Source of the DNA: a virus
Taxonomy: Duplodnaviria > Caudoviricetes
IMG/VR virus record: IMGVR_UViG_3300011335_000447
Span: 1 to 59,386 of that record
Length of the DNA: 59,386 nucleotides
Strand: one strand, 5' to 3'
The translations under genes and the position numbers were made by a program. The notes below the pieces were generated by a model that saw only the letters and a list, made by a program, of their open reading frames with translations, ran no database searches and had not been told where the DNA came from. Below are positions 30,296-58,967 of this stretch, piece by piece; position 1 is the stretch's first letter, and every line of letters begins with the position of its first letter.

Positions 30296-30543
30296 CCACC
30301 CCTCAAAGTGAGCTTGAGGCGCTGACGGTGCGTGGCCGCACAGGCAAGCGTCATGCAATGTTTGGTCCGTTGCCGATTAACGCAATTCTCACCGCGCTTA
30401 AAAATTATTTGATACCGCAAAGCTGCGTAGTGGTGTGCGAACGATATGCGGCTAATTATTGCGGAATGAATGCGCATTTTGAAAGCGGTGTAACTCGCTG
30501 CACATACACCGATTGCCCCCTCAGATTGAAGGCCACAACATGA
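30292..30543 (+). CDS. Cys-rich hypothetical protein, paralog of 31467-31739
   Basis: MTTP, ILTAL, CV.VC, DCPL shared. Confidence 0.6.
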   Translation: MTTPQSELEALTVRGRTGKRHAMFGPLPINAILTALKNYLIPQSCVVVCERYAANYCGMNAHFESGVTRCTYTDCPLRLKATT

Positions 30544-31376: not shown

Positions 31377-31379
31377 CAA

Positions 31380-31739: not shown

Positions 31740-31951
31740 ATGACACCCCCGCGCCGAGGTTCACGGCTGAACAGTTCAAGAGCGCATCAATAGCGATACG
31801 CATGGCAACGCCTGACCAGAAGTTCGCCATGAACACCCTGGCCGATATGTTTGCCCAAGCCGCCGCCGACCTCGCAGCCGCGCCGACGATAACGACTTGC
31901 CCCGGCCCGACTAACAACGACATTCCCCCACCAGCGATGAGCATCACATGA
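31736..31951 (+). CDS. Hypothetical protein
   Basis: ATGA-coupled. Confidence 0.55.
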   Translation: MNDTPAPRFTAEQFKSASIAIRMATPDQKFAMNTLADMFAQAAADLAAAPTITTCPGPTNNDIPPPAMSIT

Positions 31952-32289
31952 CCAACCCCACATACACCGCAGAGCAGATGCGTGATGCGCTGAGACACCA
32001 CTCATCAGCCATCGACCTCTCAGTTGTTGATAACATGCTCCGCCAAGGCGCGGGTGCGATGGAAGAAAACGCGGAACTAAAGAAGTTTATAGCGTCTGGA
32101 ACGGCGGTGATGCTGACAGATTGCAACTCAATTGTAATCACACTCAAAGAGCGCGTGAAGGTGCTGGAAGATGCGGTTAAGGACGCAATAGACCACATGA
32201 CTTCTGACGGCCATGAAGGCCAGATGAAAGATTGCTGGATGTGCCTACTCGTTGAACGCATGAACGCAGCCCTCAAGGAGACAAAATGA
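31948..32289 (+). CDS. Hypothetical coiled-coil protein
   Basis: ATGA-coupled. Confidence 0.6.
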   Translation: MTNPTYTAEQMRDALRHHSSAIDLSVVDNMLRQGAGAMEENAELKKFIASGTAVMLTDCNSIVITLKERVKVLEDAVKDAIDHMTSDGHEGQMKDCWMCLLVERMNAALKETK

Positions 32290-32810
32290 TTGCCTCTCTC
32301 CCGATCCACAAGTACGTCTGGGTTGACTCCAGCTTTATCCGCACTGATGCGGAAGGCTTTGAGCCAGCGGTGTGGTTCGGGCTGGTCAGCCAGTATGGCC
32401 GCGCCTGGGGGCTGAACGTCATGCTGGAGTGCGGTGCTATCTACCGCAGTTTACCGCCCCATGCGGTGGCGTTCTGCAGTGACCCAAAACCAACATGGGA
32501 CGTAACCGACGCACAGTTATGGGACTGTTACGCCGATAAGTTCCAATTGCATGAGTATGCGTATCTGAGAGAGTCCCGTGTAAAGACTGGCAAACATAAT
32601 GGTGTCTACCTGTTCACAGCAGCTTTCATTGACGATGCGTTTACACGCACACCAGAGCAAGGCAAAGAATTTAGCTTTATCGAGTTAACGAACGGACGCC
32701 TGACGATACAACCAACCAACCGCACGTTGTTTGAGGACAAATCATTCACGATAGACACCGGCACACCGAAAGACTTGGTGACTCAAAACACGGTCTGGTC
32801 GTGCGAATGA
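32286..32810 (+). CDS. Conserved hypothetical phage protein
   Basis: GAIYRSLP.HA, QLWDC, GVYLFT, L.NG....QPTNR. Confidence 0.75.
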   Translation: MIASLPIHKYVWVDSSFIRTDAEGFEPAVWFGLVSQYGRAWGLNVMLECGAIYRSLPPHAVAFCSDPKPTWDVTDAQLWDCYADKFQLHEYAYLRESRVKTGKHNGVYLFTAAFIDDAFTRTPEQGKEFSFIELTNGRLTIQPTNRTLFEDKSFTIDTGTPKDLVTQNTVWSCE

Positions 32811-32953
32811 CCGTTACCCCTGCCAAGTTCATCTGTCTACGTGAACACCCTGAAAACGCACGATGGGGTTTGGGATGTGGGCGTGAGTGGACTGGAACTG
32901 CTAACTGAGGTTGTCCGTTTTGCAGCGCGTTTTATGTGAAGGAAATTAAATGA
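32807..32953 (+). pseudogene. Zn-ribbon mini-gene interrupted by in-frame TGA (32906-32908)
   Basis: C..CGREW..*GCPFC..YV; ATGA overlaps at both ends. Confidence 0.55.
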
Positions 32954-34035
32954 CTTTATGGCCGTATCATTCTGAAGATGAAATCAACGCCGTTGTTGAA
33001 GTGCTTCGCTCTGGTAAAACAAATTACTGGTCAGGTCCAAACGGGCAAGCGTTTGAATCAGAATTTGCTCAATTTACCGGAGCGAAGCATGCTATTTCTG
33101 TTACCAACGGCACGACCGCGTTAGAAGTTGCGCTTCATGCCATTCAAAACCCCAATGCGGAGGTTATTGTTCCGTGTCGAACGTTCATGGCAACTGCGAG
33201 TGCGGTTGTCACGGCTGGAATGGTCCCGGTTTTGGCGGATATTGACCCCCAAACGCTGAATGTGAACGTTGATTTGCTTGAAGATCGGCGCACACCCAAC
33301 ACTTTGGCTGTGATTGTGGTGCATTACGCGGGTTTGCCGTGTGATATGGAGTCGATTTGCGCTTGGGCCGAAAAACATTCGATCATAGTCCTTGAGGACT
33401 GCGCTCACGCGCATGGTTCTCGCATAAACGGCCAGCACGTTGGCACTTTTTGCTCGATTGGGTGCTTTTCGTTCTGCGTTGGCAAGATCATGTCCACTGG
33501 CGGCGAGGGTGGCATGGTTATTACGAACTATCCCGAGGTCCATAAGCGCATGGCGGCACGGCGCGATCACGGGCGCTATCAGATGATGGGTTCTAAGGAC
33601 ATGACCCAGTTCCAATGGACTGTTGAGGAGTATGGAACAAATCTGCGTATGACTGAAATGCAGTCTGCGATTGGCCGGTTGCAGCTACAGAAGTTGGACG
33701 GCTGGGTTCGTCGGCGCAATGCGATAGCCAATCGGTACAATTTGATTCTGGATGGGATTGATACGCCAAAGAACGTCACACACGGGCGTTACCTTTACAT
33801 GGCGACAATTGATGACCGTGATGCGCGTATGGCCCGTTTACAGGAAATGGGTATTGCTGCGCGGTTGGGTGGTTGTCCGAACATTGGGCATGAGGCGGTG
33901 TTTGGCGGCATGGCGGCGCATTGCCCAAATGCAGATGCCGTTGGCGAGCGGACTATTTCATTGCCGGTGTATCCGACAATGACGAATGATGAAGTCGAGA
34001 AGGTGTGTGACGCGGTGAAAATCGTATGCGCCTAG
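32950..34035 (+). CDS. DegT/DnrJ PLP-dependent sugar aminotransferase (PglE/LegC-like)
   Basis: NGTTAL, EDCAHAHG, SFCVGK, GEGGM, NLRMTEMQSAIG. Confidence 0.92.
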   Translation: MTLWPYHSEDEINAVVEVLRSGKTNYWSGPNGQAFESEFAQFTGAKHAISVTNGTTALEVALHAIQNPNAEVIVPCRTFMATASAVVTAGMVPVLADIDPQTLNVNVDLLEDRRTPNTLAVIVVHYAGLPCDMESICAWAEKHSIIVLEDCAHAHGSRINGQHVGTFCSIGCFSFCVGKIMSTGGEGGMVITNYPEVHKRMAARRDHGRYQMMGSKDMTQFQWTVEEYGTNLRMTEMQSAIGRLQLQKLDGWVRRRNAIANRYNLILDGIDTPKNVTHGRYLYMATIDDRDARMARLQEMGIAARLGGCPNIGHEAVFGGMAAHCPNADAVGERTISLPVYPTMTNDEVEKVCDAVKIVCA

Positions 34036-34496
34036 ACGACGAAATTGTTCACACCTACCGACAGTCCCGCAAGTGCTTTTTGGCTGGTGATTTGAAGGGC
34101 GCGGAGTATTGCTACCGTGAAAACAGGAGAGAGCATGGCATTGATTTATATTATGAGGTGGATTTGCCTCAACACCTTATGTTTGTTCACCCTGTTGGGA
34201 CTGTTCTTGGTCGAGGTGTTTATGGTGATTATCTTTGTGTTTACCAAAATGTTGGAGTTGGTTCTAACCTTGATGGGTCGCGTCCTACGCTCGGGCGCGG
34301 AGTTGTACTTTTCCCTGGATGCAAAATTCTGGGAGATACAAAGATTGGCAACAACGTATTTGTCCAAGCCAACACGGTAGTCCACAACAAGACGATCCCA
34401 TCGAACTCAATTGTCTACCCTAACAACGGCGGGTGTACTTACGATTTGACGACAAAAAATGTAATTAAAGAAATCTTTAAGGTGACTCATGGTTAA
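34026..34496 (+). CDS. Left-handed beta-helix acetyltransferase (serine acetyltransferase-like)
   Basis: HPVGTVLG, YQNVGVG, hexapeptide repeats. Confidence 0.75.
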   Translation: MRLDDEIVHTYRQSRKCFLAGDLKGAEYCYRENRREHGIDLYYEVDLPQHLMFVHPVGTVLGRGVYGDYLCVYQNVGVGSNLDGSRPTLGRGVVLFPGCKILGDTKIGNNVFVQANTVVHNKTIPSNSIVYPNNGGCTYDLTTKNVIKEIFKVTHG

Positions 34497-34641
34497 ACGT
34501 ACAAAAAAATTAAGAATTAACATTACTATTACGCCTGAATTATTAAAACGTATTGACGCTATTGTTACTTCTTACGAACGCAGTCGTTTTGTTAACGAAG
34601 CGTGTGTTGAAAAATTAAATAAAAGAAAAGAAATTAAATGA
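34489..34641 (+). CDS. Ribbon-helix-helix DNA-binding protein (not in ORF track)
   Basis: RINITITPELLKRID...RSRFVNEA. Confidence 0.7.
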   Translation: MVKRTKKLRINITITPELLKRIDAIVTSYERSRFVNEACVEKLNKRKEIK

Positions 34642-35345
34642 GCGTCCTCTATTTGATTACGGCTCGGGGCGGCTCAAAGGGCGTGCCGAAGAAGAACCTC
34701 CGCATGATTGGCGGATTGTCATTGGTGGGCTGGAAAGCCGAGGTCGCCAAGCAAGTTATTACACCGGAAGATGATCTGGTGATTTCGAGTGAATGTCCTG
34801 AGATTTTGAGGGAAGCGCGGGATCACGGGGTGTCTGTACCGTTTGTCAGACCTGATGCGTTGGCGACCGACACGGCTTCGTCTGCGGATGTGATTTCTCA
34901 CGCAATGGATTATTTGCAAGGTGACTACAATACGGTTGTGTTGTTGGAGCCGAGTGCACCGTTTACAACGCCCGAGCATTTGGTGACTGCGCTAACGATG
35001 AAAGATGCGAAGCAAGCGCACCTGATTGTTGGGATGAAGCACACCGAGCCGCACACGACCTTCATTGGCGAGCAGCCCGACGATGATTTTGTCACGCCAA
35101 TTATTGTGAAGATGGATCGTGTTGGCCGCAATTTGCGTCGGCAGGATTTAAAGCAAGAGTGGACGATGAACGGCGGGTTGTACGTTTTTGATGCGAGTAT
35201 GTTTAAACACAAGCGGTCCATTTACGGCGGAGCCAGGAACTACGGCTTGTTGATGGACCGTTGGCACAGCATTGAGATTGATTCGATGCACGATCTGGAA
35301 ATGGCTCAGTACGCTTTCAGCAAGGGATATGTGAGTTTACCATGA
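34638..35345 (+). CDS. neuA: CMP-nonulosonic acid synthetase (NeuA/LegF family)
   Basis: ARGGSKGVPKKN, FVRP..LATD, NGGLY, SIEIDS..D. Confidence 0.9.
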   Translation: MSVLYLITARGGSKGVPKKNLRMIGGLSLVGWKAEVAKQVITPEDDLVISSECPEILREARDHGVSVPFVRPDALATDTASSADVISHAMDYLQGDYNTVVLLEPSAPFTTPEHLVTALTMKDAKQAHLIVGMKHTEPHTTFIGEQPDDDFVTPIIVKMDRVGRNLRRQDLKQEWTMNGGLYVFDASMFKHKRSIYGGARNYGLLMDRWHSIEIDSMHDLEMAQYAFSKGYVSLP

Positions 35346-36046
35346 CGTTCATTATTTGTGAGGCGGGGATTAACCACTGCGGCTCTCTTGATCGCGCATT
35401 GAAGATGGTCGAAAGCGCGGCTGAATGTGGCGCTGATGCCGTTAAGTTCCAATCGTTCACCGCGACCGAGTTAGGGTACGAGCCGAAGTTGACGGAGTTC
35501 CTTCGGGGTGTGGAGTTGTCGAAGGACGATCATTTCAAGCTGAAGATGAAGGCCGACAAGTGCGGCATTGAGTTCATGTCCACGCCGTTTGATACGAAAT
35601 GGTGCGACTTCCTGGTTGATGAGATTGGCGTGAAGCGCATTAAGATTTCAAGCGGGAAGGTCAAAGACCGTCTGTTTGTTGAGCATGTGTTGGACTGTGG
35701 ACTTCCCGTGATTGCCAGTAACGGCATGGTTACTGCCAATATGTTTAATAGACATTTTCGTTATAGAGATAAATTTACAGCTTTGTATTGTGTGTCTGAG
35801 TATCCGACGCCGCTTTACATGTTAAATTTCGGAAACATTAAAAAATTAAGTAAAGATTTTCAGCGCGTCGGCTTTTCCGATCATACCGTTGGAATAGAGG
35901 CCAGCATTATTGCTGCTGCATCTGGCGCGTCTGTGATTGAGAAGCACTTTTCATTAGATAAGACGCTCCCCGGCCCCGACCACGTTTGCAGCCTGGAGCC
36001 TGACCAATTTAAAGAGATGGTCCGACAGATCAGGCTGGTGGCGTAA
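35342..36046 (+). CDS. neuB: Nonulosonic acid synthase (NeuB/LegI family), lacking C-terminal SAF domain
   Basis: EAGINHCG, GADAVKFQ, STPFD, KISSG, YPTP, GFSDHT, IEKHF, GPDH..SL.P. Confidence 0.9.
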   Translation: MTFIICEAGINHCGSLDRALKMVESAAECGADAVKFQSFTATELGYEPKLTEFLRGVELSKDDHFKLKMKADKCGIEFMSTPFDTKWCDFLVDEIGVKRIKISSGKVKDRLFVEHVLDCGLPVIASNGMVTANMFNRHFRYRDKFTALYCVSEYPTPLYMLNFGNIKKLSKDFQRVGFSDHTVGIEASIIAAASGASVIEKHFSLDKTLPGPDHVCSLEPDQFKEMVRQIRLVA

Positions 36047-37077
36047 TGTTGTCTGGGGGGACACGCAAGATTGAGGTGAAGGACTTGCTTTCTCGACGGT
36101 CTGTTGTTTCTGATTTGTCCCCGGTTCACAAACTGGTCAACCAACGGCGCGTGGTCATTACCGGCGCGGGTGGGTCAATTGGTTCTGAACTGGCCCGACA
36201 GGTCTACGCCCTTGACCCGCAATCTCTGACTTTGATCGACAACAGCGAGTACCACCTTTACGCCATAGGTACGGCATTGCCTCACACCAATCGTTTGTTG
36301 GGTGATGTGCGCGACACCAATCGGATTTACGAGATATTTAAGGCGCTCAAGCCGGAGGTTGTGTTTCACGCTGCTGCGTTGAAGCACGTTCCGATTGTGC
36401 AATCCAATCCGATTGAGGGGATTAAGACCAACGTATTTGGCACGCAGAATGTGGTTGATGCTGCGATTGTTGTGGAGGCTGAGACGTTGGTGATGGTATC
36501 GACTGACAAGGCAGTTAATCCGGTGAGCGTGATGGGGGCGACGAAGCGCGTTGCCGAGATGTACGTTCGGGCCGCTGGGTACAGCGTTGTGCGGTTTGGG
36601 AATGTGTTGGGTTCTTCCGGCTCGGTGGTTCCATTGTTTGAGGCGCAGATCGCCAAGGGTGGGCCGATCACGCTGACCGACGAGGACGTTGAGCGTTATT
36701 TCATGACGATTGATGAGGCGGTTGAGTTGGTGTTGTTGGCCGCTACGGGCCAGCGAGCAACGTATGTGTTGGACATGGGCGAGCCGGTGAATGTTGGGGC
36801 ACTGGCTCGCGACATGATCCGGTTGGCGGGGAAGATGCCCGACAGTGAGATTAAGGTTGAGTTGACGGGTTTGCGCCCAGGTGAGCGGCTTCACGAGGAG
36901 TTGTTTTACTCCAAGGAGACGGTGAAGCCGTCTGGCATGGGCGGGATATTGTTGGCTGATTCGGTGGTTCATTCCAACGTGGGGTCTGCGATTGGCCGGT
37001 TGGAGGAGTTGGTTCGGATCGGATTGGTCGAGGAATCATTGGCTGTTTTATGGAGGTCTGTCCGTGTCGGGTCGTAA
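36046..37077 (+). CDS. UDP-GlcNAc 4,6-dehydratase catalytic domain (PglF/CapD/WbpM family)
   Basis: TGAGGSIGSEL, HAAALKHVP, STDKAVNP, RFGNVLGSSGSV, GLRPGERLHEEL. Confidence 0.92.
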   Translation: MLSGGTRKIEVKDLLSRRSVVSDLSPVHKLVNQRRVVITGAGGSIGSELARQVYALDPQSLTLIDNSEYHLYAIGTALPHTNRLLGDVRDTNRIYEIFKALKPEVVFHAAALKHVPIVQSNPIEGIKTNVFGTQNVVDAAIVVEAETLVMVSTDKAVNPVSVMGATKRVAEMYVRAAGYSVVRFGNVLGSSGSVVPLFEAQIAKGGPITLTDEDVERYFMTIDEAVELVLLAATGQRATYVLDMGEPVNVGALARDMIRLAGKMPDSEIKVELTGLRPGERLHEELFYSKETVKPSGMGGILLADSVVHSNVGSAIGRLEELVRIGLVEESLAVLWRSVRVGS

Positions 37078-40533: not shown

Positions 40534-43140
40534 ATGACTGACGAACCTTCTTTAGATGATTTTGCTTTCGAGTTATTGCGCCGTCGTCAAGCGCGAGAGA
40601 ACTTCTCGGACTTCATGAAGTATTTGCACGGCCTTCCCCCGCCGAAACACATGAAGTTTCTGTGCGATAAACTTCAAGATAAAATGAGCCGCAAGGGCGA
40701 CCGGCTTCTGGTTTGCTTTCCCCCTGGCCACGGTAAAAGCACGGTTTCTTCGCTCTATTACCCCGCGTTCTATCTATCTAAAAACCCAACGCACAACATC
40801 ATTACAGTTAGTCACACTGAATCTTTTGCTGAACAGTGGGGCCGTAAGGTTCGTAACTTGATGATGAGCGACGAATACAAGTTTTTGTTTCCAGAAATAA
40901 AAGTTGCAGAAGATAGCCGCTCGGCTGGCCGGTGGGATTTGGTCAACGGCGGCTCGTATTATGCTACGGGTGTCGGCGGCACGGTGACGGGCCGAAGGGC
41001 AGATTGCTTGGCCGGGGATACGATTTTACAAACGCCCAACGGCACTATCCGCATTGAAGATATTGACGTTTGCCCGTCTCCCTGTTATGTTCTGTCTTAT
41101 GACACAGAACGGACGACTGACAGTTCACCAACCTACCGTAGAGTTATTGCTGTTGCACGGCGCAAAACGTCTGAGCGATTTCGAGTTCACACTTCCAATG
41201 GAAGTGTTCTTGAAGCAACGGGAAACCATTTGGTCTTTAACCAAAGGGGTTTCGTCAAGGTCGAAACCTTATGTGTTGGTGACTTACTCTTGCGGAGTGT
41301 GCCAAACACCGAAGTCCACAACGATGGCAGAGGCGGCGAAAAGGACAAGGAAAGGCAGAACGGAATTTTATTGCAGTTTCCCATGTTCAACTCGGGCGAA
41401 CAACGTAGCGCGTGGAATGGTTTTTCAAAGAACGTGCAACGCTTGTGGGGAACCGTTGGGACCAAGATCAAAGACTGGGGTTTCAAAAAGAACTTGCTCG
41501 GAAAAATGTCGGTTAAAAATATTAAGAGAAGTAGGGGTAAGGCGCAGAATACCTGGAGATTGGCGCAATCGTATTTGCGAGACTTGTCAAAAGCCGTTTA
41601 CGGTATCGACAAAAGTATCAACTGGAAAATATTGTTCCAGAACTTGCTCAAGCACCGCCCACAGAGAAAGAATGTCTGGGAAAAACAATCCCGGCTATCT
41701 TCATGGTGGAGAGACAAAGGGCGCTCGCTCCATACGCTTTTCTCATGCGGAGGAGAGAACACAGAAGGGTTGGATGGATTTGCGCTGGCTTATAATACAG
41801 CGGGACGGAAAGGCTTGCGTGGTTTGCAAGAAAGCGCCCAAACGCCAACTTCACTGCCATCATATAAATTTGAATCCGAAAGACAACAGACACGAAAACT
41901 TGGTGGCTCTCTGCCGCCCGTGCCATACGAAACTTCATGCAGCGGAGCGTTCAAAACCGAAAGTGATACTGTTTCCTTGGTTGAGCGAGTATGCGAAGAA
42001 ATCTTTGTCTACGACATAGAAGTAGAGGACACCCACTGCTTCTTCGCCAACGGCATCCTAGTCCACAACTGCGTAATCTGCGACGATCTTTTGAAAGGCG
42101 TTGATGACGCAGAATCAAAACTTGTACGCGATAATATGTGGGATTGGTGGGGTTCTGATTTATCAACTCGTCTGAAGCCTAGCGGCGTGATGGTAATTAT
42201 TGGCACACGCTGGCACCTAGATGACATCATTGGCCGAGTCATGGCCGCTGAGAAGCAGAAGGGTGGCGACAAGTGGGACAAGGTTATTCTCCCGGCTCTG
42301 GCTAAAGACAAAGACCCATTAGGGCGTAAAGAAGGTGAAGCCCTCTGGCCGGAGTGGGAAAGTGAAGTTGCTCTGGCTCGGAGGCGTAACCAGCCGTCGA
42401 TGACTTCTCGGCAGTGGGAATCTCTGTATCAACAAAGCCCAGTTCTTGATTCTGGTAACGTCATCAAACGAGACTGGATCAAAATTTGGAACCAACGCGA
42501 ACCGCCTAAATGTGATTTTATTCTTCAAAGCTGGGATACGGCTATTACATCTAAAAACAAAAGTGCTTTTTCAGTTTGTTTGACGTTTGGAATTTTTACA
42601 GAAGATAAAACGGATTTGCCGTCAATTATCTTGTTGTCCCGCTGGCGGGGCCGTGTGGATTACCCTGAACTCCGCAAAATGGCTCAAAGGCTGGCTAATA
42701 ATTATTTAGACGATAATTTAGAAGTGCCTATGACCGGCAATTTTAAAAAACCTCCAGACATGATTTTGATTGAAGCCAAAGCCACGGGGGAACCTTTGAT
42801 AGCTGATTTGAACCGTGCCGGTATCTCTGCAACACGGTTCAATCCGAACAAGCATGGAGATAAGAACGCTCGACTTTTGCTGACAACGGACATTTTTGAG
42901 AATGGCCGATTTTACGTCCCTGGCCAGCCCCCAAATTACACACTTCCTAGGCGATGGGCCGAAGGCTATGTAAATTCTTTAATTTCATTCCCGGCTTCAG
43001 ATTCACGAGATGATGCCGACGCAACCAGCCAAGCTATTATTCGGATGAAAACCAGTGGCTGGATTAAGAACAGCCTTGATGCTATAGAAGAAGTTCCTTT
43101 CCGCGTAACAAAACGTGCAAACGGGGCACTTTATGGTTAA
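40534..43140 (+). CDS. terL: Terminase large subunit precursor containing an intein
   Basis: PPGHGKS Walker A, GRRAD/CVICDD Walker B split by intein, TRWH.DD, YQQ.P, SWDTA, DD.ADA nuclease. Confidence 0.93.
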   Translation: MTDEPSLDDFAFELLRRRQARENFSDFMKYLHGLPPPKHMKFLCDKLQDKMSRKGDRLLVCFPPGHGKSTVSSLYYPAFYLSKNPTHNIITVSHTESFAEQWGRKVRNLMMSDEYKFLFPEIKVAEDSRSAGRWDLVNGGSYYATGVGGTVTGRRADCLAGDTILQTPNGTIRIEDIDVCPSPCYVLSYDTERTTDSSPTYRRVIAVARRKTSERFRVHTSNGSVLEATGNHLVFNQRGFVKVETLCVGDLLLRSVPNTEVHNDGRGGEKDKERQNGILLQFPMFNSGEQRSAWNGFSKNVQRLWGTVGTKIKDWGFKKNLLGKMSVKNIKRSRGKAQNTWRLAQSYLRDLSKAVYGIDKSINWKILFQNLLKHRPQRKNVWEKQSRLSSWWRDKGRSLHTLFSCGGENTEGLDGFALAYNTAGRKGLRGLQESAQTPTSLPSYKFESERQQTRKLGGSLPPVPYETSCSGAFKTESDTVSLVERVCEEIFVYDIEVEDTHCFFANGILVHNCVICDDLLKGVDDAESKLVRDNMWDWWGSDLSTRLKPSGVMVIIGTRWHLDDIIGRVMAAEKQKGGDKWDKVILPALAKDKDPLGRKEGEALWPEWESEVALARRRNQPSMTSRQWESLYQQSPVLDSGNVIKRDWIKIWNQREPPKCDFILQSWDTAITSKNKSAFSVCLTFGIFTEDKTDLPSIILLSRWRGRVDYPELRKMAQRLANNYLDDNLEVPMTGNFKKPPDMILIEAKATGEPLIADLNRAGISATRFNPNKHGDKNARLLLTTDIFENGRFYVPGQPPNYTLPRRWAEGYVNSLISFPASDSRDDADATSQAIIRMKTSGWIKNSLDAIEEVPFRVTKRANGALYG
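41005..42069 (+). mobile_element. Intein (355 aa) in TerL
   Basis: CLAGDT block A, ATGNHLV block B, VYDIEV..THCFFANGILVHN blocks F/G, +1 Cys. Confidence 0.93.
41273..42019 (+). CDS. HNH homing endonuclease with Zn fingers, nested in the +1 frame of the intein (start uncertain; frame open from 41054)
   Basis: CxxC...CSxxC repeats, MSGKNNP, RDGKACVVC...HCHHI...DNRHENLVALCRPCH..LH. Confidence 0.88.
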   Translation: MLVTYSCGVCQTPKSTTMAEAAKRTRKGRTEFYCSFPCSTRANNVARGMVFQRTCNACGEPLGPRSKTGVSKRTCSEKCRLKILREVGVRRRIPGDWRNRICETCQKPFTVSTKVSTGKYCSRTCSSTAHRERMSGKNNPGYLHGGETKGARSIRFSHAEERTQKGWMDLRWLIIQRDGKACVVCKKAPKRQLHCHHINLNPKDNRHENLVALCRPCHTKLHAAERSKPKVILFPWLSEYAKKSLSTT

Positions 43141-43176: not shown

Positions 43177-45591
43177 ATGGCCATAGATCGCGCAACCGCC
43201 TCTATACTTGGTTTAAATGATATAACTGGCGGCGATGCTAGTGGTGAAGAATTAAACATTCCTCAAATTGACCCTACGTTTGCCGATGGCGCGTCAATCA
43301 CGCCTGAAGAAGATGGTGGAGAAACTATTGATTTTCAACCACAGGCTGATGAATCCAAACCAGTGGATCACGATGACAATCTGGCCGAATACATGGAGGA
43401 TGATGACCTTCAATCTTTAGCTAACGACATCATTGATTACGTTGGTGAAGACCGAAAATCCCGCGCCGATTGGGAATCTATGTTGTCTCAAGGTTTGACC
43501 TACCTTGGCTTAAAGATTGAAGATAGGTCTATCCCCTTTAGCGGTGCGGCTGGGGTCTTTGATCCAATCTTATTAGAAGCTGTAATTCGTTGGCACGCGA
43601 CGGCTAGCGCCGAGTTAATGCCAGCGTCAGGTCCGGTTAAGACTCAAATCATTGGCCAACCAACGCCGGAAACAGAAGCCCAGGCTTCCCGCGTTAAAGA
43701 GTTTATGAATTATTACTTGATGGAAGGCGCACCTGAGTGGGTTGAACAAAACGACCAAATGTTGTTTTGGCTTCCTCTGGTTGGCTGCACGTTTAAGAAA
43801 ACTTACCAAGACCCCATTTTAAACAGAGTAGTTAGCCCCTTTATTCTACCTCAAGACTTTGTTGTTTCATTTAGCACCGATAATTTAGAGACTTGCCCCC
43901 GCGCTACGCACATCATCAACATGTCTCCCAAAGACATGAAAATGCGTCAGATCAGCGGGTTTTACCGTGATGTTGAATTAAAAGAACCTGATTATTTAGA
44001 TGAAAAAAACTCGTCGTTAAAAGACAAATCTACCTACACTCAAGGTTTAACTACACCCACAGATTCAGACGAAGCGCCTTATGACGTATATGAGTGCCAT
44101 ATTGACCTAGACTTGGTTGGTTTTGAGCATAAAGAAGCCGAAAACGACGATAGCGAAGAAGAGCCTACTGAAACTGGCTTGCCGCTGCCGTACATCGTCA
44201 CAGTCGAGACTGGTTCTAGAAAAGTTCTGTCGATCCGCCGGAACTGGAAAGAAAAAGACCAAACTTATTCTAAAATTCAATATTTTACGCACTTTAAGTT
44301 TGTCCCCGGCCTTGGGTTCTACGGTATTGGCTATGCCCATATTTTGGGTAATACGGCCAAGGGCGCTACATCTTTGCAAAGGCAAATGATAGACGCCGCC
44401 ACCCTGGAGATGTTCCCAGGCGGTCTAAAAGTGAAGGGTATGAGGGGCGACGACAGCAACGTCATGATTGGCCCCTGCGAGTTCCGCGAATTGGATACCG
44501 GAGGGATGCCCATTCAACAGGCCATTATGACGATGCCCTATAAGGGGCCGTCTCCCGTATCTATGGAGCTTTGGAAAGCCACCCGCGAGAACGGGGAGCG
44601 CCTTGGCGGTATGACTGAGGTAGCGGTTGGAGAAGGCCGTCAGGACGCCCCTGTAGGCACCACAGTAGCCCTTCTAGAAGCTTCTAACCGAGTGCAGTCT
44701 GCTACCCTCAAAGCTGCCCACCGCGCCTACAGACGCGAATTTAAGTTATTTGCGGCCCTGTTTGGCCAGTTCTTGCCGGAAGAGCCATATCCATGGCCGG
44801 TAGCCGGTGGTCCGAACGTCATTATGAGGGCTGACTTCTCGGATCAAATTGACGTTATCCCCGTCAGCGATCCCAACATTACGTCCTCTGCCCAGCGCAT
44901 GATGCGTGCCGAAGCCCTGCTTCGATTTGCAACTCAAGCCCCAAATTTGCACGATCAATATCAGGCTTACCGCCAGATGTACGTGGAAATGGGCATAGAC
45001 GAAAAGCGGATTACTGCGCTTCTGCCTCCCAAGGAAGAAGCCAAGCCGATGGACCCGTTGAGCGAAAACCAGAACTTTTTAAACGGCAAGCCCGTCAAAG
45101 TTGGCGCGTACCAAGACCATGATGCCCATATTGCATCTCACACGGTTTTGATGCAGCAAAAGCCTGAGTTGGTAACGGTCCCGGCGCATATTGCCGAGCA
45201 TGAAGCCGCCAAGATGCGGGTTCAGGTTGAACAGATTCTGGGTCAGGCGCTTCCGCCTGAAGGCCAGCAATTGCCGCCTGAAGTTGAAAACCAAATTGCC
45301 GTTTTGGTTGCCAAAGCGATGCAACAGATTTCTAAACCGCAAGGTGGAGAAGACCCCACCCCTGGTCAGATTGCTATGGAGCAGCTTAAAGTTGAAGCCG
45401 CTAAAGTTCAGGCTAAGTTGCAAGAAATTCAATCTAACACCAGCAGCAAGGCATTTACTGAAACGTTAAAGTTAAAATCTAGCCGCGAGGACCGCCTGAC
45501 TCGTGAGCGTATTGCCATGTTGAGTTACGAAAAAGACAGGCAGAAACAAATTTCCCAACCAAAGACTTTCGGGACAAGGAGCAAATTCTAA
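43177..45591 (+). CDS. Portal protein
   Basis: 804 aa after TerL; NLAE, SRADW, GPVKT, PGLGFYG.G, APVGTTVAL, PVSDPN. Confidence 0.88.
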   Translation: MAIDRATASILGLNDITGGDASGEELNIPQIDPTFADGASITPEEDGGETIDFQPQADESKPVDHDDNLAEYMEDDDLQSLANDIIDYVGEDRKSRADWESMLSQGLTYLGLKIEDRSIPFSGAAGVFDPILLEAVIRWHATASAELMPASGPVKTQIIGQPTPETEAQASRVKEFMNYYLMEGAPEWVEQNDQMLFWLPLVGCTFKKTYQDPILNRVVSPFILPQDFVVSFSTDNLETCPRATHIINMSPKDMKMRQISGFYRDVELKEPDYLDEKNSSLKDKSTYTQGLTTPTDSDEAPYDVYECHIDLDLVGFEHKEAENDDSEEEPTETGLPLPYIVTVETGSRKVLSIRRNWKEKDQTYSKIQYFTHFKFVPGLGFYGIGYAHILGNTAKGATSLQRQMIDAATLEMFPGGLKVKGMRGDDSNVMIGPCEFRELDTGGMPIQQAIMTMPYKGPSPVSMELWKATRENGERLGGMTEVAVGEGRQDAPVGTTVALLEASNRVQSATLKAAHRAYRREFKLFAALFGQFLPEEPYPWPVAGGPNVIMRADFSDQIDVIPVSDPNITSSAQRMMRAEALLRFATQAPNLHDQYQAYRQMYVEMGIDEKRITALLPPKEEAKPMDPLSENQNFLNGKPVKVGAYQDHDAHIASHTVLMQQKPELVTVPAHIAEHEAAKMRVQVEQILGQALPPEGQQLPPEVENQIAVLVAKAMQQISKPQGGEDPTPGQIAMEQLKVEAAKVQAKLQEIQSNTSSKAFTETLKLKSSREDRLTRERIAMLSYEKDRQKQISQPKTFGTRSKF

Positions 45592-46553: not shown

Positions 46554-46718
46554 ATGCCAGTCGTCAGCAAAAGCCAAAATCGTTTTATGCGTGCAGCAGC
46601 TTCCCGGCCAGCAATGGCTAGGAAGCTGGGCATAAAGCAATCTGTAGCTAAAGAATTTATAAAAACAAAAAAGGGTAAGTCGCTATCTAACTTGCCGGAG
46701 AAAGTGAAGAAAAAATGA
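46554..46718 (+). CDS. 54-aa basic phage protein (not in ORF track)
   Basis: MPVVSKSQNRFMRAAA..P...KLGIKQSVAKEF...LPEKV; ATGA overlap. Confidence 0.7.
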   Translation: MPVVSKSQNRFMRAAASRPAMARKLGIKQSVAKEFIKTKKGKSLSNLPEKVKKK

Positions 46719-47005
46719 GTGCAGACCTGTTGGCAAGGAAGGTCACGGCAAGGTTAAGGGAAATTCGGGAAGATAAAATAAACGCACTCCGAAGATGCAA
46801 GCCCCGCGCCCCGATGGTTATTGAAGGCGCAGCAGTCCCCGCAGCTACGGCTGAAGAAATTGCTTTTTTTGCAATAGATACGAACGCAACTATAGATGCG
46901 ATCAACATGCTTATGTTGGTCGTGGAGGAAGAGTACAAAAAATTAACAAATCCAGAAGACCCCGTTGAAGATATTAACCAAAAGGCAAGGATAAATTATG
47001 GCTAA
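46715..47005 (+). CDS. Hypothetical head-module protein
   Basis: Coupled ORF before GroES-like gene. Confidence 0.65.
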   Translation: MSADLLARKVTARLREIREDKINALRRCKPRAPMVIEGAAVPAATAEEIAFFAIDTNATIDAINMLMLVVEEEYKKLTNPEDPVEDINQKARINYG

Positions 47006-47477
47006 TTCAAAATCACTTCCATATGTGGAAGAACACGAAGTTAAAGAATCACTCACTATAATTAATAAACAATTTGTTGAACTTACCGGGAAAGAGTTCG
47101 GATTTCGTCCAGCCGGATATTATATTGCGGTTAAAATTTATGTCAGATCAGATGAGTTGTCGGTTATTGACATGCCCGATGGTTCAAAGAAAACTCTTTG
47201 GACGCCTCCAGTAATGCAGAAACAAGACGCACTTGAATCTTGCTGTGCGCTTGTTGTTGCTATTGGCCCCGGTTGTTTTAAAAACCGCGACACTGGTGAA
47301 CCATGGGCTGATGGCCCAACTTGCCGCATAGGTGACTGGGTTGCCATTCCTCGTGCTTCTACATGGCTGACGAATTGGCGCGGTGTGGCAATTGGTGTTT
47401 TGCCAGACGACAAAATTATTGGAACGGTAGAAGACCCAGCCGATCTTTCCTCTGTGTATGTTCCTCCAAAAATATAG
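46998..47477 (+). CDS. groES: GroES-like co-chaperonin
   Basis: RPAGYYIAV, LVVAIGP, CRIGDWV, LPDDKIIGTV. Confidence 0.8.
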   Translation: MANSKSLPYVEEHEVKESLTIINKQFVELTGKEFGFRPAGYYIAVKIYVRSDELSVIDMPDGSKKTLWTPPVMQKQDALESCCALVVAIGPGCFKNRDTGEPWADGPTCRIGDWVAIPRASTWLTNWRGVAIGVLPDDKIIGTVEDPADLSSVYVPPKI

Positions 47478-48628: not shown

Positions 48629-49126
48629 ATGGGCCGTAAACCGCGCAATTCTGAAACTCGTGAGAGTACCACTCGTGCTGCAACCAGTCGTTCTGCTATG
48701 AGGACTACTCACCAGTCTCGGTTTTATATTCCAAAAGAAGTTATTCCTAAAAACATGACCTATGCTTGGGTTGCAATTACGTTTGATAATGCTGGAACGC
48801 AAAATAAAGACAATTGGAACCGCAAATATAGGGCAGGTTGGAATCCTGTACCTCGTGACCGTCATCCTGAATTGTTTCCGCCCGTGCCAAATATTGGTTT
48901 TGGGTCAGACGACAGCGCACACATTGATGAAGGCGGTTTAGTTCTTTGCGAAAAACCAACCGCTGATGTAAACCGTGATAAGGCTACCCTTGAGCGAAGA
49001 GCAAGACAACAAATGGAGGGCACGCAGTGGACGCAATCTTCTGGGTCCAACCCATTTGCTCAAACGATGCCACGATTTGATGAATCTAAAACTGAATTTG
49101 GCCATAGAGCAGAATTTAAAGAATAA
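48629..49126 (+). CDS. Conserved head-module protein
   Basis: YAWV, GWNPV...HPE, GGLVLCEKP; SD aggag. Confidence 0.7.
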   Translation: MGRKPRNSETRESTTRAATSRSAMRTTHQSRFYIPKEVIPKNMTYAWVAITFDNAGTQNKDNWNRKYRAGWNPVPRDRHPELFPPVPNIGFGSDDSAHIDEGGLVLCEKPTADVNRDKATLERRARQQMEGTQWTQSSGSNPFAQTMPRFDESKTEFGHRAEFKE

Positions 49127-49133
49127 ATTACGG

Positions 49134-49170
49134 GGTGGTCAGGGTTAAAAAACCTTGACCACACCTTTCC
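49134..49170 (+). terminator. Hairpin / probable terminator
   Basis: tggtcagggtt-aaaa-aaccttgacca then ctttc. Confidence 0.55.
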
Positions 49171-49221
49171 CTTGCCGGAGTGTGTGATAAAGGCCATCCT
49201 GGCCACCCCACCATTTATGTG

Positions 49222-49250
49222 CTTACATACAGCTCAATTTATGGTAATGT
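49222..49250 (+). promoter_or_regulatory. Promoter for capsid genes
   Basis: CTTACA-17-TAATGT with TG extension. Confidence 0.55.
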
Positions 49251-49266
49251 AATTCTTCTTATAGCT

Positions 49267-49350
49267 CCCGCAATAGCGGGTTATCGACGCCAGTTACGTT
49301 ATCTGGTCGGGCAAAAAAGCCCGTTATCGACGGCGGTTACGTTATCCGCT
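49267..49350 (+). ncRNA. Candidate tandem structured cis-regulatory RNA in capsid leader
   Basis: Two units of hairpin-TTATCGACG-hairpin(loop TTACGTTAT) with compensatory stem changes. Confidence 0.6.
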
Positions 49351-49426
49351 CCGACCACAGGCAGTGGTAATCAGTAAAACCTAGGTTTTTGCGTCAATTG
49401 TGGCGCATCTGAACGGAGTATATAAC

Positions 49427-50029
49427 ATGGCTTACGGCGCAAGTGGTGGCTTTGGCCTCCAGCCGCTTAACAGCGGAAACGGTGTCACCTTCAACGGTGT
49501 TACCAACCAATACAATCTCCCCGCTACGGGCGGTCAGACGATCTTCCAGGGCGATCCAGTAGCTCTTTCCACCGCTGGTGTCATTATTCGTGGCACTGCC
49601 GGTTCAGCAATTACTGGTGTTTTCCAAGGTTGCAAATATCAAGACTCCTCGGGTATCTGGCAATTTGTAAACTACTTCAACGGCGCAACGGCTTTCCTTT
49701 CGGGTAACGTCCCGGTAGCGATGGTCATTGATGACCCGATGGCGCAATACACAGTCACTGAAGGTGATGGTACAGGCGCTTCTGGCACTCCTCTGGCCGC
49801 TTCGGCCCCTGGATTGAACGCCAATTTCCTGTACACGGCTGGCAGTACCCGAACGGGCGTTTCAGCCGTTACGCTTAACAATTCAACTGCAAGCTCTGCT
49901 TCTGGCCTTAACATGCGGGTAACTTCTATTGATCCTCGCGTTGGTAATGCTGTTGGCGCGTTCGCTAACTGGATTGTTCAAATCAACAATGGCCAGCGTT
50001 CTGCTGGAACACCGGGGCATATTATTTAG
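49427..50029 (+). CDS. Capsid decoration / minor capsid protein
   Basis: FGLQP, IFQGDPV, GVFQGC.Y, DDP; SD ggag; directly before MCP. Confidence 0.75.
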   Translation: MAYGASGGFGLQPLNSGNGVTFNGVTNQYNLPATGGQTIFQGDPVALSTAGVIIRGTAGSAITGVFQGCKYQDSSGIWQFVNYFNGATAFLSGNVPVAMVIDDPMAQYTVTEGDGTGASGTPLAASAPGLNANFLYTAGSTRTGVSAVTLNNSTASSASGLNMRVTSIDPRVGNAVGAFANWIVQINNGQRSAGTPGHII

Positions 50030-50061
50030 TCCCGTAACGCTTTTGGCCTAGGAGCAAACAT

Positions 50062-50967
50062 ATGACTATTAATACCAGTTCAATCCAACAACTTCTCCGC
50101 CCAGGTTTGGCGGAAGTTTTTGGTGATTATCCAATGTATCCTGCTGAATACACGGAAATCTTTACCACCCAAACTTCAGATAAAGCAGTTGAAATCGAAG
50201 TTGAAATGAAACTGCTTGGCCTCGCCTCGATCAAAGGTGAAGGAGCGCCAACGCAGTTCCAAGACATGGGACAGCGCGTTATCTCGACCTACTACCACCG
50301 CTACACTAGCGTTGGTTTCATCATCACCCGTCAGGCGATGAAGGACAATCTGTATGAGTCGCAGTTCCCACTTCAAGCGCAGTCTCTCCGTAATTCAATG
50401 CTGCAAAGCAAAGAAGTCAACGGCGCGTCAGTCTTGAACAACGGCTTCTCTTCCTCGTTCCCCGGTGGCGATGGTCAGCCTCTCTTCTCGACCGCGCACC
50501 CGATTGATACTGGCACGTTCGCCAACACGCCAAGCGTGCAGGTGGACTTGAACGAATCGTCGCTGCAAGACGCTATCGTAACTATCTCGCAGTTCCGCGA
50601 TCAAGCTGGCCTCATCACGATGACGAAGCCAACCAAACTGATTGTTCCGCCGCAGCTTCAGTTCACGGCTGACCGTATCCTGCATTCTCAATTCCGCACG
50701 GGTACTGCCAACAACGACATCAATGCAATCTACAACATTGGTGCCGTGCCACAGGGCTATCGCGTCAACCACTTCTTGACCGATACCAATGGCTGGTTCC
50801 TCATGACTGACGCACCCAATGGTTTGAAACATTACGTTCGTGAAGCTTTGGAAACTGACGTTTTCACTGATTTTACCAGTGACAATTTGTTAGCCAAAGC
50901 TATCGAGCGTTATTCGTTCGGTTGGTCTAATCCGCGTGGTTCGTTTGGCAGCTCGGGCGCTACCTAA
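50062..50967 (+). CDS. Major capsid protein
   Basis: LRPGL, K.EG, DNLY, KE..GA.VLN, DGQPLFS.AHP, KLIVPP.L, ERYSFGWS.PRG. Confidence 0.9.
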   Translation: MTINTSSIQQLLRPGLAEVFGDYPMYPAEYTEIFTTQTSDKAVEIEVEMKLLGLASIKGEGAPTQFQDMGQRVISTYYHRYTSVGFIITRQAMKDNLYESQFPLQAQSLRNSMLQSKEVNGASVLNNGFSSSFPGGDGQPLFSTAHPIDTGTFANTPSVQVDLNESSLQDAIVTISQFRDQAGLITMTKPTKLIVPPQLQFTADRILHSQFRTGTANNDINAIYNIGAVPQGYRVNHFLTDTNGWFLMTDAPNGLKHYVREALETDVFTDFTSDNLLAKAIERYSFGWSNPRGSFGSSGAT

Positions 50968-51054: not shown

Positions 51055-51810
51055 ATGACAACTTTCTTTGATAGCATCAAAATGGGGCGTGCGGTTTATA
51101 ACCGCAATTCCGTCCCTTCTACTGGGTATATGGAGGACGAAATTTATGGCGTCCCGCTGACTCAGACTTACGTTTACCAAGTGGGTACAGCGTCCACTTC
51201 TTTGGCCAGCGGCGTGTTCTATGCGTCGTCTGCCATTGCGGGTACGTTGACCGGCACGGGCGCTTTGGTCAGCAGCGGCGTTGCTACCTTTGACGTTCCG
51301 CGTTGCGTGTCCATTACGGCTTCCAGCAATATGTCAACGACGACATTTACCTTTCAAGGTACGGATGCGTATGGTGCGCCACTTACTGCGTCTGTGCTTG
51401 GCCCGACCGGCAATACCTTCGGCAATTCTGGTTCTGTTGTTAATACGCTTTCGGCCTTTAAGACCGTCACCACCGCATCTGCGAATGGCGCGGCCACTGG
51501 CCTGTTGGCGATTGGTAACTCGGATACCTACGGCTTGCCTTATCGCCTTTCTAACGTTGGCGAAGCTCTTGGGGCTTATATTAACGGTGGAACGGCGTCG
51601 ATTGCTCCGACTTACACCGCTGGTTTGGCTGCTACGGGCGTTGCTACTGCGACCACCGCTGATGTTCGTGGAACGGTTGCACTGGCTACGGCTGTTCTGG
51701 CCAACGGCTCCAGGTACGTCACCTTCCAGTTTATCACCCCGAACGATGGGACTTTGGCTGGCAGCGATACCAAAGAAAATACGTATGGCGTAACGCCATA
51801 TTCTGGTTAA
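51055..51810 (+). CDS. T/S/A/G-rich virion protein (decoration-like)
   Basis: DVPR.V, GTD.YG, AFKTV, D..GLP, DVRGT. Confidence 0.7.
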   Translation: MTTFFDSIKMGRAVYNRNSVPSTGYMEDEIYGVPLTQTYVYQVGTASTSLASGVFYASSAIAGTLTGTGALVSSGVATFDVPRCVSITASSNMSTTTFTFQGTDAYGAPLTASVLGPTGNTFGNSGSVVNTLSAFKTVTTASANGAATGLLAIGNSDTYGLPYRLSNVGEALGAYINGGTASIAPTYTAGLAATGVATATTADVRGTVALATAVLANGSRYVTFQFITPNDGTLAGSDTKENTYGVTPYSG

Positions 51811-51818
51811 ATGTAAAT

Positions 51819-51853
51819 CGCCGGGGTGTGGCCGTCATGCCCCGGCGTTTATT
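51819..51853 (+). terminator. Intrinsic terminator
   Basis: cgccgggg/ccccggcg then tttatt. Confidence 0.7.
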
Positions 51854-58575: not shown

Positions 58576-58967
58576 TGACAACTTTTATTGGTCGTGGGCC
58601 GGGAACTTCTCCGACCACAGATTTTTTTCCTTTAAGTGCTGCATCTGCTAGCAATCCTGTAATTAATATTGCTGCTTTAACCGCAACGGCTGGTGGCACA
58701 CCAATTCATGTAGCAGACGCAAATGCTTATGACCTTCCGATTATTTATGTTGCTAACGTAGGCAGCACATCAAATGTAGTCGCGTATTTGCAAATGGGGT
58801 CTACGGCAACAACTCAATCCATCCCAGTTACAATCGCAACATCATCATACGCTTTGTTGCAACCTGGGACTCCGATTAGTGGAAGCGGAACTGTTGGTAT
58901 TTGGGTATCTGCCAGTGGTGTTGTTGCTTACGGCGGCGTGACGCGTACTTACACAGCTTCGGCATAG
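58575..58967 (+). CDS. Small T/S-rich virion protein
   Basis: 130-aa coupled ORF. Confidence 0.7.
   Translation: MTTFIGRGPGTSPTTDFFPLSAASASNPVINIAALTATAGGTPIHVADANAYDLPIIYVANVGSTSNVVAYLQMGSTATTQSIPVTIATSSYALLQPGTPISGSGTVGIWVSASGVVAYGGVTRTYTASA

Follow-up and report, generated by a model that had tools for sequence, protein, structure and literature searches.

Organization of the capsid leader

We have analysed the leader of the capsid genes in an uncultured freshwater phage represented by a virus record of the IMG/VR database (IMGVR_UViG_3300011335_000447), whose 59,386 bases, at an estimated completeness of 79%, are referred to as the window. In this leader, a reading made from the sequence alone (the sequence-only reading) had noticed two consecutive units, each composed of two hairpins with a common linker and loop, and had proposed them to be part of a structured RNA. 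The element is contained within a gap of 300 nucleotides (nt) between the gene of a 165 amino acid (aa) protein and the gene of a 200-aa protein, which is the first gene served by the leader and precedes the one of the major capsid protein. The name 'decoration' that had been attached to this first gene is tentative, as its sole match is phrog_37556, a family of unknown function. The leader is about 170 nt long, is devoid of ATG and, together with its surroundings, comprises the following features:

48629-49126: gene of the 165-aa protein (stop at 49126)
49132-49165, plus strand: terminator-like hairpin 3' of the 165-aa gene, followed by TTTCCCTT (inverted repeat with 15-nt arms, 87% complementary)
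49223-49250, plus strand: putative sigma-70-type promoter, read from sequence, with TTACAT (49223-49228), a 16-nt spacing and TG-n-TAATGT (extended -10, 49242-49250); predicted start at ~49257
49267-49280, plus strand: H1, the hairpin CCCGC-AAUA-GCGGG, first element of module 1 (sequence, predicted fold, covariation)
49281-49288, plus strand: linker 1, UUAUCGAC, 8 nt, single-stranded, with an invariant CGA that is always located 1 nt 5' of the H2 stem
49289-49307, plus strand: H2, a stem of 5 base pairs (bp) GCCAG/CUGGU with the 9-nt loop UUACGUUAU at 49294-49302 (36.4 bits with the covariance model R1; stem covariation)
49308-49323, plus strand: H1', the hairpin CGGGC-AAAAAA-GCCCG, first element of module 2 (sequence, predicted fold, covariation)
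49324-49331, plus strand: linker 2, UUAUCGAC (sequence)
49332-49350, plus strand: H2', a 5-bp stem GGCGG/CCGCU with the loop UUACGUUAU at 49337-49345 (39.8 bits with R1); candidate switch hairpin
49348-49353, plus strand: GCUCCG, complementary to the Shine-Dalgarno sequence (SD) and termed anti-SD, whose first three bases are the last three of the 3' strand of H2'; predicted to pair with 49414-49419
49354-49368, plus strand: H3, the hairpin ACCAC-AGGCA-GUGGU (found in 12 of 12 leaders with five different stem sequences)
49371-49412, plus strand: helix of UCAG (49371-49374) with CUGA (49409-49412), enclosing the palindrome hairpin and H5 (minimum-energy fold)
49376-49389, plus strand: palindrome hairpin AAAACCTAGGTTTT (sequence, predicted fold)
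49390-49396 / 49401-49407, plus strand: H5 stem (seen in 11 of 12 leaders)
49414-49429, plus strand: translation initiation region with CGGAGU (SD GGAG at 49415-49418), the spacer AUAUAAC and AUG at 49427-49429
49427-50029, plus strand: gene of the 200-aa protein (phrog_37556)
50062-50967, plus strand: gene of the major capsid protein (phrog_371)
51055-51810, plus strand: gene of a 251-aa protein
51819-51847, plus strand: strong terminator-like hairpin of 13 pairs, nine of them G-C, followed by the T-rich TTTATTATTG, at the end of the capsid unit

The RNA thus starts with H1, UUAUCGAC and H2, repeats the same trio, and continues with GCUCCG and three further helices to the SD and the AUG at 49427. 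When re-read, both units are found exactly as initially described, namely CCCGC-AATA-GCGGG TTATCGACG CCAG-TTACGTTAT-CTGG T at 49267-49307 and CGGGC-AAAAAA-GCCCG TTATCGACG GCGG-TTACGTTAT-CCGC T at 49308-49350, and the additional hairpins mentioned at the time are present as well, with ACCAC/GTGGT at 49354-49368, AAAACCTAGGTTTT at 49376-49389 and, in front of the SD, a stem at 49390-49407. The 9-nt linker is correct in sequence but not in extent since its last G pairs with the T after the stem, which turns H2 into a 5-bp stem with a G.U closing pair and leaves a linker of 8 nt. A repeat search gives a direct repeat of 37 nt with 81% identity and a spacing of 43 nt, and AAUCAG and AUCUGA are conserved in the leader alignment A4. 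Within the window, the 22-nt core TTATCGACG-N4-TTACGTTAT has two perfect matches, both in the capsid leader, and a third match with three mismatches at 17271-17292 on the minus strand, which goes unreported by the covariance model R1 at E<=1. In shuffled sequences 0.03 matches of this core pattern are expected and none of 100 shuffles reaches three. The element is a real, uncatalogued folded RNA whose array is beyond chance.

Covariation and sequence constraints of the module

The analysis of sequence constraints rests on relatives that were obtained from a capsid protein search of IMG/VR, of which the best 80 of 103 related stretches were used. In modules from related capsid leaders, the CGA of the linker (C7, G8 and A9) is invariant in 24 of 24 (alignment A1), 18 of 18 (A2) and 17 of 17 sequences (A3). 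The H2 loop, with a length of 7-9 nt, contains CG in 24 of 24 modules, mostly as part of ACGU in the usual form (U/C)ACGU(U)AU, while other modules carry the cores UCGU, CCGU, UCGA and ACGG. Likewise, in the 21 distinct modules of the R1 alignment CGA is invariant and CG is nearly always present in the loop.

Conversely, the sequence of the stems changes while pairing is maintained. In a hand-made alignment of 17 modules, for which pairing of the inner four stem pairs was a selection criterion, all 85 stem cells pair, and the outer pair, which provides an independent test, does so in 17 of 17 modules with five pair types. The covariance model R1 collects 27 matches from 15 sources, 21 of them distinct, and in the resulting alignment, which is fitted to the model and hence favours pairing, 105 of 105 stem cells are standard pairs with all five pairs changing on both sides. 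The covariation score of 0.909 compares to 0.278 ± 0.044 in shuffles, none of 500 of which reaches the observed value, and to at most 0.186 if partners are slid. The H1 stem covaries in relatives (CG:7 UA:3; GC:7 UG:2 AU:1, etc.), as do H1' and H3. The compensatory changes that had been noted between the two units are thus found again in modules from related capsid leaders, as expected for a structured RNA.

The outer H2 pair is GU in 10 of the 21 distinct modules which, in combination with the single orientation of the element, points to an RNA rather than a DNA site. Although a DNA-binding protein could conceivably use inverted repeats with a conserved spacer as its operator, or these repeats could act as cruciform or single-strand hairpin signal, the half-sites vary freely and yet stay complementary, including the mentioned G.U pairs which are meaningful only in RNA, all matches show one orientation relative to the gene, and the sequence is located downstream of the promoter. 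We thus regard a function at the level of DNA as very improbable. The conservation of loop and linker in the presence of drifting stems argues for their recognition.

Two additional interactions within the tandem were considered and rejected. A helix between both linkers (UCGA:UCGA), as proposed by RNAalifold, is at odds with the fact that only CGA is invariant and that the variants GCGA, ACGA and CCGA break the outer pairs without compensation. For a pseudoknot between linker and loop the complementarity is inconsistent, as CGAAG linkers co-occur with ACGU loops. Kissing of the loops by ACGU:ACGU pairing is feasible for canonical loops, whereas non-palindromic loops of unit 2 allow for 2-3 bp.

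Distribution among relatives and relation to known RNA families

The region upstream of the capsid genes was inspected in 31 loci (L003-L027, L034, L035, L042, L048, L051 and L053). In 28 of them, with capsid identities between 59 and 99%, two to three modules are found at the equivalent position of the capsid leader, in line with the expected conservation in relatives, while three loci (L027, L034 and L035) contain other G+C-rich hairpins instead of the module. The arrangement persists at considerable distance, as in L042, whose capsid protein is 64% identical and where the stems are entirely different in sequence and the order H1 - CGA - H2 - H1' - CGA - H2' is nevertheless retained. A scan of viral sequences with a pattern of the element identified 31 contigs, and among the 18 additional ones only L236, a close relative, and L234, which contains three modules, are real. 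In G001, the contig of L008, the leader occurs at both ends of 61.8 kb (737-811 and 61583-61657), and the two copies differ in the loop of unit 2 (CCCUCGUUC vs UUACGUUAC), which is most simply explained by a single locus that was assembled at both ends from co-existing strain variants. The assembly of G001 appears to be broken exactly within the capsid-leader element.

The covariance model R1 is specific for capsid leaders. Applied to 53 sources with 444,394 bases, it finds 31 matches at E<=3.9e-4 in 17 sources, all on the plus strand and all in capsid leaders, with exactly two in the window. The degenerate second module of L019 is among five weak matches (E 0.05-0.87). Of five related records that were searched in full, four yield the tandem pair with nothing else below E = 0.02, G001 with its second copy of the pair being one of them. 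The fifth (L025) holds three modules with 6-bp stems, which emerge from a search of the leader by itself (E 8e-5 to 0.013). A search of bacterial genome contigs with a degenerate tandem pattern returned at least 120 stretches, which are G+C-rich chance matches with no convincing instance among 80 examined, the pattern being too loose for GC-rich genomes for this null result to serve as evidence of absence. In the bacterial loci L124, L132 and L144 both copies can form a 4-bp stem, in this case within GC-rich repeats, and R1 detects no tandem match in the 80 bacterial loci with a best score of 22 bits.

The sequence-only reading had recognised no riboswitch in the element, and no family of Rfam 15 matches at gathering score either in the window or in 15 related loci (120,309 bases). 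Even at E<=10, the region 49100-49450 contains only a chance-level match to Mg-II (11.6 bits compared to a gathering score of 40), which is located upstream of the element. The motif is also undescribed in the literature that was searched, although it may still be among the approximately 10,000 candidate structured RNAs that have been catalogued from IMG/VR (PMC10690425), five of which are mentioned as being located upstream of a major-capsid-protein domain.

In sister clades with 60-68% capsid identity, five whole genomes of which contain no R1 match at E<=0.01, the equivalent site of the capsid leader is occupied by two copies of a different unit. It consists of a hairpin of 4-6 bp, whose loop is complementary to a segment 2-9 nt downstream (H-type pseudoknot), and is followed by another hairpin. 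The pseudoknot pairs include GGACAG/CUGUC, UACCG/CGGUA, GGCAG/CUGCC and GCGA/UCGC, where loop and partner covary between phages, and 1-4 such units are found per leader compared to 0.08-0.4 in shuffles. Units of this type are located at the following positions:

L040: 3091-3200
L049: 3184-3280
L033: 3224-3255
L028: 2528-2560
L038: 3219-3250
L043: 3302-3335

In more distant relatives with 45-49% capsid identity, many of them apparently marine (L054-L078), only 14-26 nt precede the 200-aa gene in 13 of 13 loci examined, in which the same five head genes are packed without promoter and leader. Similarly, the deposited phage DSL-LC04 (L239, 2303-2321) has 17 nt before this gene. The lack of promoter and leader in distant relatives identifies the cassette as a clade-specific insertion and, as judged from the sequences, its sensor part appears to be exchanged between clades. 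The locus thus resembles a natural experiment in exchangeable post-transcriptional control, with swapped modules and leaderless distant relatives.

Transcription of the leader

From their sequence signals, the capsid genes are recognised as a putative separate transcription unit of about 2.6 kb, with the promoter at 49223-49250 marking its start and the terminator at 51819-51847 its end. The predicted hairpin at 49132-49165 separates this unit from the upstream head genes. T runs also follow equivalent terminator-like hairpins in relatives (e.g. L234, 8183-8218). The promoter was omitted by a simple promoter scanner, with 8 of 12 matches compared to a cut-off of 9. A TTGACA-like -35 with a spacing of about 17 nt is, as judged by eye, kept in relatives with otherwise unalignable flanks, and three modules immediately follow a near-consensus promoter in L025 (TTGACA-N17-TATAAT), L026 and L234 (TTGACA-N17-TAATTT). 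A promoter that is conserved at otherwise unalignable loci is good evidence that the modules sit at the very 5' end of a transcript of the host polymerase. The lack of a phage RNA polymerase among the large open reading frames (ORFs) scanned agrees with a promoter of the host type.

Parts of the window are contained in six metatranscriptome runs from lake water, four of which were examined by contig placement. Contigs from two studies (49276-50342 at a depth of 26 and 49274-50294 at a depth of 23) run from the leader through the 200-aa gene into the capsid gene with no loose end, while the upstream depth in these two runs is 0-12. In run X20 a contig starts at 49222, and the coverage in run X18 is located outside of the leader only. 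The contigs provide fair evidence that the leader belongs to the capsid message, with their starts hinting weakly at a 5' end close to the predicted ~49257. Transcription of the region and its placement in sense orientation between a promoter-like site and the capsid genes, as initially claimed, are both in accord with these RNA libraries, whose contigs join the leader to the capsid genes.

A predicted translational switch

Applied to 11 leaders, RNAalifold pairs GCUCC, directly 3' of H2', with the SD (GGAGY). In the minimum-energy fold of the window H1, H2 and H1' form, whereas H2' does not. The SD, the spacer and the start region instead find their partners in GCUCCG and in the loop and 3' strand of H2', with H3 and the UCAG:CUGA helix completing a three-way junction that buries the SD. 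A pairing of the SD with CCUC after H2' is predicted in 10 of 12 minimum-energy folds of main-clade leaders. In the full leaders, the probability of H2' is at most 0.02 in 12 of 12 cases and forcing the hairpin costs 2.9-9.4 kcal/mol, whereas in RNA that is cut before the SD the same probability is 0.36-0.99 (at least 0.5 in 9 of 12 leaders and 0.77 in the window). A covarying hairpin that is absent from the predicted ground state is what a switch would look like. As H2' is kept by compensatory change and yet is not part of the equilibrium fold, there has to be a stage at which it forms, whether for kinetic reasons or with assistance.

The sequence-only reading had offered a tandem aptamer, a translational operator and an assembly RNA as possible roles, of which the operator fits best to the predicted sequestration of the SD by an anti-SD that overlaps H2'. 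An assembly RNA is unsupported, as the element is located in the mRNA leader of a double-stranded DNA phage and occurs once per genome. As the recognisable hairpins are part of the state in which the SD is free, a molecule that binds them is expected to activate translation. Each module comprises a variable H1, a single-stranded CGA located 1 nt before the 5-bp H2 and a 7-9-nt loop around (U/C)ACGU. In the mechanism that we propose, H2' would form first in the nascent RNA and, once the SD is transcribed, would be displaced by the more stable anti-SD:SD junction, with the result that neither the 200-aa protein nor the capsid protein would be translated. A trans-acting binder would then recognise CGA and loop on two or three modules simultaneously and lock H2 and H2', so that the anti-SD stays occupied and translation is turned on. 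We tentatively favour such a translational ON-switch, where locking of the module hairpins would free the ribosome site, with a likelihood that we place just short of even. In general terms, we assign the element as a new cis-regulatory RNA motif, with high confidence in its fold and location and moderate confidence in its action as a switch.

A pairing of the H2' loop with the spacer between SD and AUG (GUUAU:AUAAC in the window) was rejected as general feature, since relatives whose loops or spacers differ do not share it, and is thus regarded as clade-local. We also observed that codons 4-6 of the 200-aa gene contain ACGGAGC, an SD-like ACGGAG repeat, in the close relatives L008, L009, L010, L018, L019 and L023. 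The window has ACGGCGC at 49439-49445 (codons 5-6), and the N-terminus M-A/S-Y-G is kept across all clades.

Candidate readers of the modules

The binder is probably an RNA-binding protein specific to the phage lineage and most likely dimeric or oligomeric. A protein is favoured by the varying copy number of two to three modules, by the combination of a single-stranded triplet at fixed distance with a loop and by the presence of other tandem modules, the hairpin-pseudoknots, at the same position in sister clades. The exchange of modules, as it appears from sequence comparison, is more reminiscent of lineage-specific protein-RNA codes than of a conserved aptamer. A speculative candidate is the 165-aa protein encoded upstream of the leader, whose N-terminus (window 48629-48740) is rich in Arg, Ser and Thr (MGRKPRNSETRESTTRAATSRSAMRTT...) in module-bearing phages and differently charged in phages of the pseudoknot type. 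It belongs to no known family, its 27 homologues all being unnamed or 'hypothetical' and its atlas entry reading only 'hypothetical protein'. Scans of 35 window proteins against Pfam and PHROG list no zinc-finger or RNA-binding family, with no search aimed at a Com-like zinc ribbon being made.

Several observations weigh against the proposed switch and its reader. The evidence for switching is a thermodynamic prediction with an assumed 5' end, the RNA contigs define no such end and DNA carry-over is possible in RNA libraries. The fold of the whole leader is only modestly more stable than that of shuffles (z = -2.25, with 6 of 200 shuffles folding as well), the anti-SD:SD helix is nearly invariant without two-sided covariation, and the predicted partner of the anti-SD in 2 of the 12 main-clade leaders is not the SD but a second GGAG, located in codons 5-6. 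If H2' is forced in silico, the SD often takes other partners. In the distant module-bearing loci L025 and L051 no anti-SD adjoins the last module, and in L042 CUCC is found in the loop of an inter-module hairpin, suggesting that coupling to the SD may be clade-specific. The loops of unit 2 diverge strongly among close relatives (CCCUCGUUC, UCGAACU, CAAUCGUAU), which would fit a changing specificity or a relaxed constraint alike. Finally, domain search and gene profiling of the window did not find the binder, and a search of the phage record, at its estimated completeness of 79%, for the ANTAR domain (PF03861) gave no match at E<=1. A presence/absence profile of 85 window ORFs in five module-bearing compared to five other genomes yielded only a 96-aa ORF (46715-47005) and an 81-aa ORF (4204-4449), both without Pfam or PHROG match and weak as leads, in a profile that is based on tblastn and may miss diverged small proteins.

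The failure of domain search and profiling to yield a binder would be expected if the leader acted independently of any factor, with hairpins that stabilise the abundant capsid mRNA against decay depending on its 5' end or that set a fixed kinetic rate of translation. Such a role would also agree with the start of the hairpins within about 10 nt of the predicted 5' end and with the highly structured leader, of whatever type, in every leader-bearing clade. However, stabilising hairpins need neither an invariant CGA at fixed distance nor conserved loops or duplicated modules, and we thus consider this explanation as unlikely, if still worth keeping in mind.

To our knowledge, very little is known on how tailed phages that use the host polymerase time and dose the synthesis of their most abundant protein, especially in case of uncultured freshwater phages. 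The leader probably decides on the timing of capsid protein synthesis and, if it acts as the translational ON-switch proposed above, would allow the use of a strong promoter read by the host while the synthesis of capsid protein stays timed or dosed. With its short length of about 170 nt, the RNA would be useful for finding a new RNA-binding regulator or ligand, and modules and binders could serve as compact parts for translational control if they are orthogonal between clades.

Comparison with known regulatory RNAs

The novelty resides in the motif and not in the type of control. The guanidine-II riboswitch (mini-ykkC) is a translational ON switch with two ACGR-capped hairpins and a sequestered SD (PMC5558903). 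The leader shares with it the tandem of small covarying hairpins and loops containing ACG, and is predicted to have an anti-SD that competes with the folded state. In contrast to the ACGR tetraloops of guanidine-II, the loops described here comprise 7-9 nt (UYACGU(U)AU) with a core that is mostly ACGU, thus carrying U instead of R, and its two fixed G-C pairs under the loop are replaced by variable ones (GC:18 AU:3, and AU:10 GC:8 CG:2 UA:1 for the next pair). The module further adds the invariant CGA and one H1 hairpin each, is present in 2-3 copies in relatives, and precedes the 200-aa gene, whose function is unknown, and the gene of the major capsid protein instead of genes of the guanidine carboxylase or SugE type.

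This likeness raises the question of a small-ligand riboswitch, where the tandem hairpins would be halves of an aptamer for a small molecule or ion, perhaps with a loop-loop contact of the palindromic ACGU or CG, and where the ligand would stabilise H2' and expose the SD. Besides the architecture shared with guanidine-II, the small number of about 9-10 conserved bases per module, as in very small riboswitches, and the fact that CG is the sole loop feature kept in all 24 modules would be compatible with such an assignment. It is opposed by the lack of any Rfam match at E<=10, with mini-ykkC included in the search, by loops of 7-9 nt instead of tetraloops with pairs underneath that are not fixed, and by the non-palindromic loops of unit 2 that leave 2-3 bp for kissing. 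It is also opposed by the three copies in some relatives, by unrelated modules at the same site in sister clades and none in more distant relatives, by the absence of an instance among the 80 bacterial loci examined of at least 120 pattern matches, and by the non-metabolic context of capsid genes. We thus judge a small-ligand riboswitch to be rather improbable, and slightly more so the specific version in which the hairpins with CGA and ACGU loop would form a new very small class resembling guanidine-II with ligand-dependent docking of CG loops. If correct, the phage would gate capsid translation on a small molecule made by host or phage, and the modules of sister clades would be alternative classes of sensors swapped into the same leader.

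In terms of mechanism, two other systems are, along with guanidine-II, closest to the proposed ON-switch. In the RNA substrates of ANTAR proteins (EutV, AmiR, NasR), the second hairpin cannot coexist with an 'off' structure, and a bound protein holds the RNA in its 'on' fold (PMC3369931). The leader is similar in its two tandem small stem-loops, which are two or three in relatives, but the loops of ANTAR substrates are hexaloops whose positions 1 and 4 are A and G, respectively, whereas the loops described here contain 7-9 nt with A-C-G and thus A and G two positions apart. Moreover, the second hairpin in ANTAR substrates overlaps the 5' base of an intrinsic terminator, whereas there is no terminator in this leader and the competitor is the predicted anti-SD:SD helix. 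With loop size and sequence, closing pairs, terminator and gene context all failing to agree, the element is a member of neither the guanidine-II nor the ANTAR group. The Com protein of phage Mu binds a short hairpin beside the translation-inhibition structure of mom and thereby activates translation (PMC6483171). A geometry of this type, with a hairpin adjacent to a structure hiding the start site, is predicted in our case. In Mu, a single hairpin with another motif controls a DNA-modification gene, whereas tandem modules precede capsid genes in the window.

In the nut site of phage lambda (boxA-boxB), a linear box is followed by a 5-bp hairpin with a GNRA-like pentaloop that is read by the arginine-rich N protein, leading to the override of terminators. 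The combination of the UUAUCGAC box and a 5-bp stem is reminiscent of this arrangement, whereas the pentaloop differs from the 7-9-nt loops of the module. A signal for processive antitermination, similar to nut or to put with its tandem hairpins near the promoter, by which RNA polymerase would read through terminators into downstream virion genes, would account for the location close to the promoter, for the linear conserved box directly before a 5-bp hairpin with conserved loop, and for the strong terminator at 51819-51847 that precedes more virion genes. Conversely, the leader contains no terminator, the loops are not GNRA-like pentaloops and no boxA-like sequence is present, the coupling to the anti-SD points to translation, and no N-like protein was identified, so that we view antitermination as quite improbable.

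Phages also employ translational operators of structural and replication genes, such as those of the MS2 and PP7 coat proteins, the gp32 pseudoknot and gp43 hairpin of T4 and the autoregulation of the P22 scaffold. Here, a phage protein doses synthesis by reading a small hairpin or pseudoknot in front of the gene, whose loop is fixed while its stems are free to vary. Whereas these operators repress and overlap the ribosome site, the modules described here are duplicated, located about 70-130 nt upstream and, by the logic of the fold, should activate.

Other features of the window

Upstream of the capsid unit and of the 165-aa gene, the window contains, in this order:

40534-43140: large terminase gene with an intein
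43177-45591: portal gene, followed by a 302-aa gene and several small genes
46998-47477: GroES-like gene, followed by an acidic, Gln-rich 375-aa gene

The intein of the terminase (Pfam Intein_splicing, E 5.1e-11, residues 191-512) is located between the N- and C-terminal terminase domains. The window contains no tRNA genes. A block of auxiliary-type genes at 27059-37077, with a weak QueC-like match, a PAPS-reductase-like gene (30513-31376), an aminotransferase (32950-34035) and a nucleotide-sugar epimerase (36046-37077), is largely absent from more distant relatives in the gene profile. Finally, positions 1-190 recur with two mismatches at 58736-58925, about 460 bases before the end of the record, after which the copies diverge, representing either a partial terminal redundancy or a duplicated small gene region.

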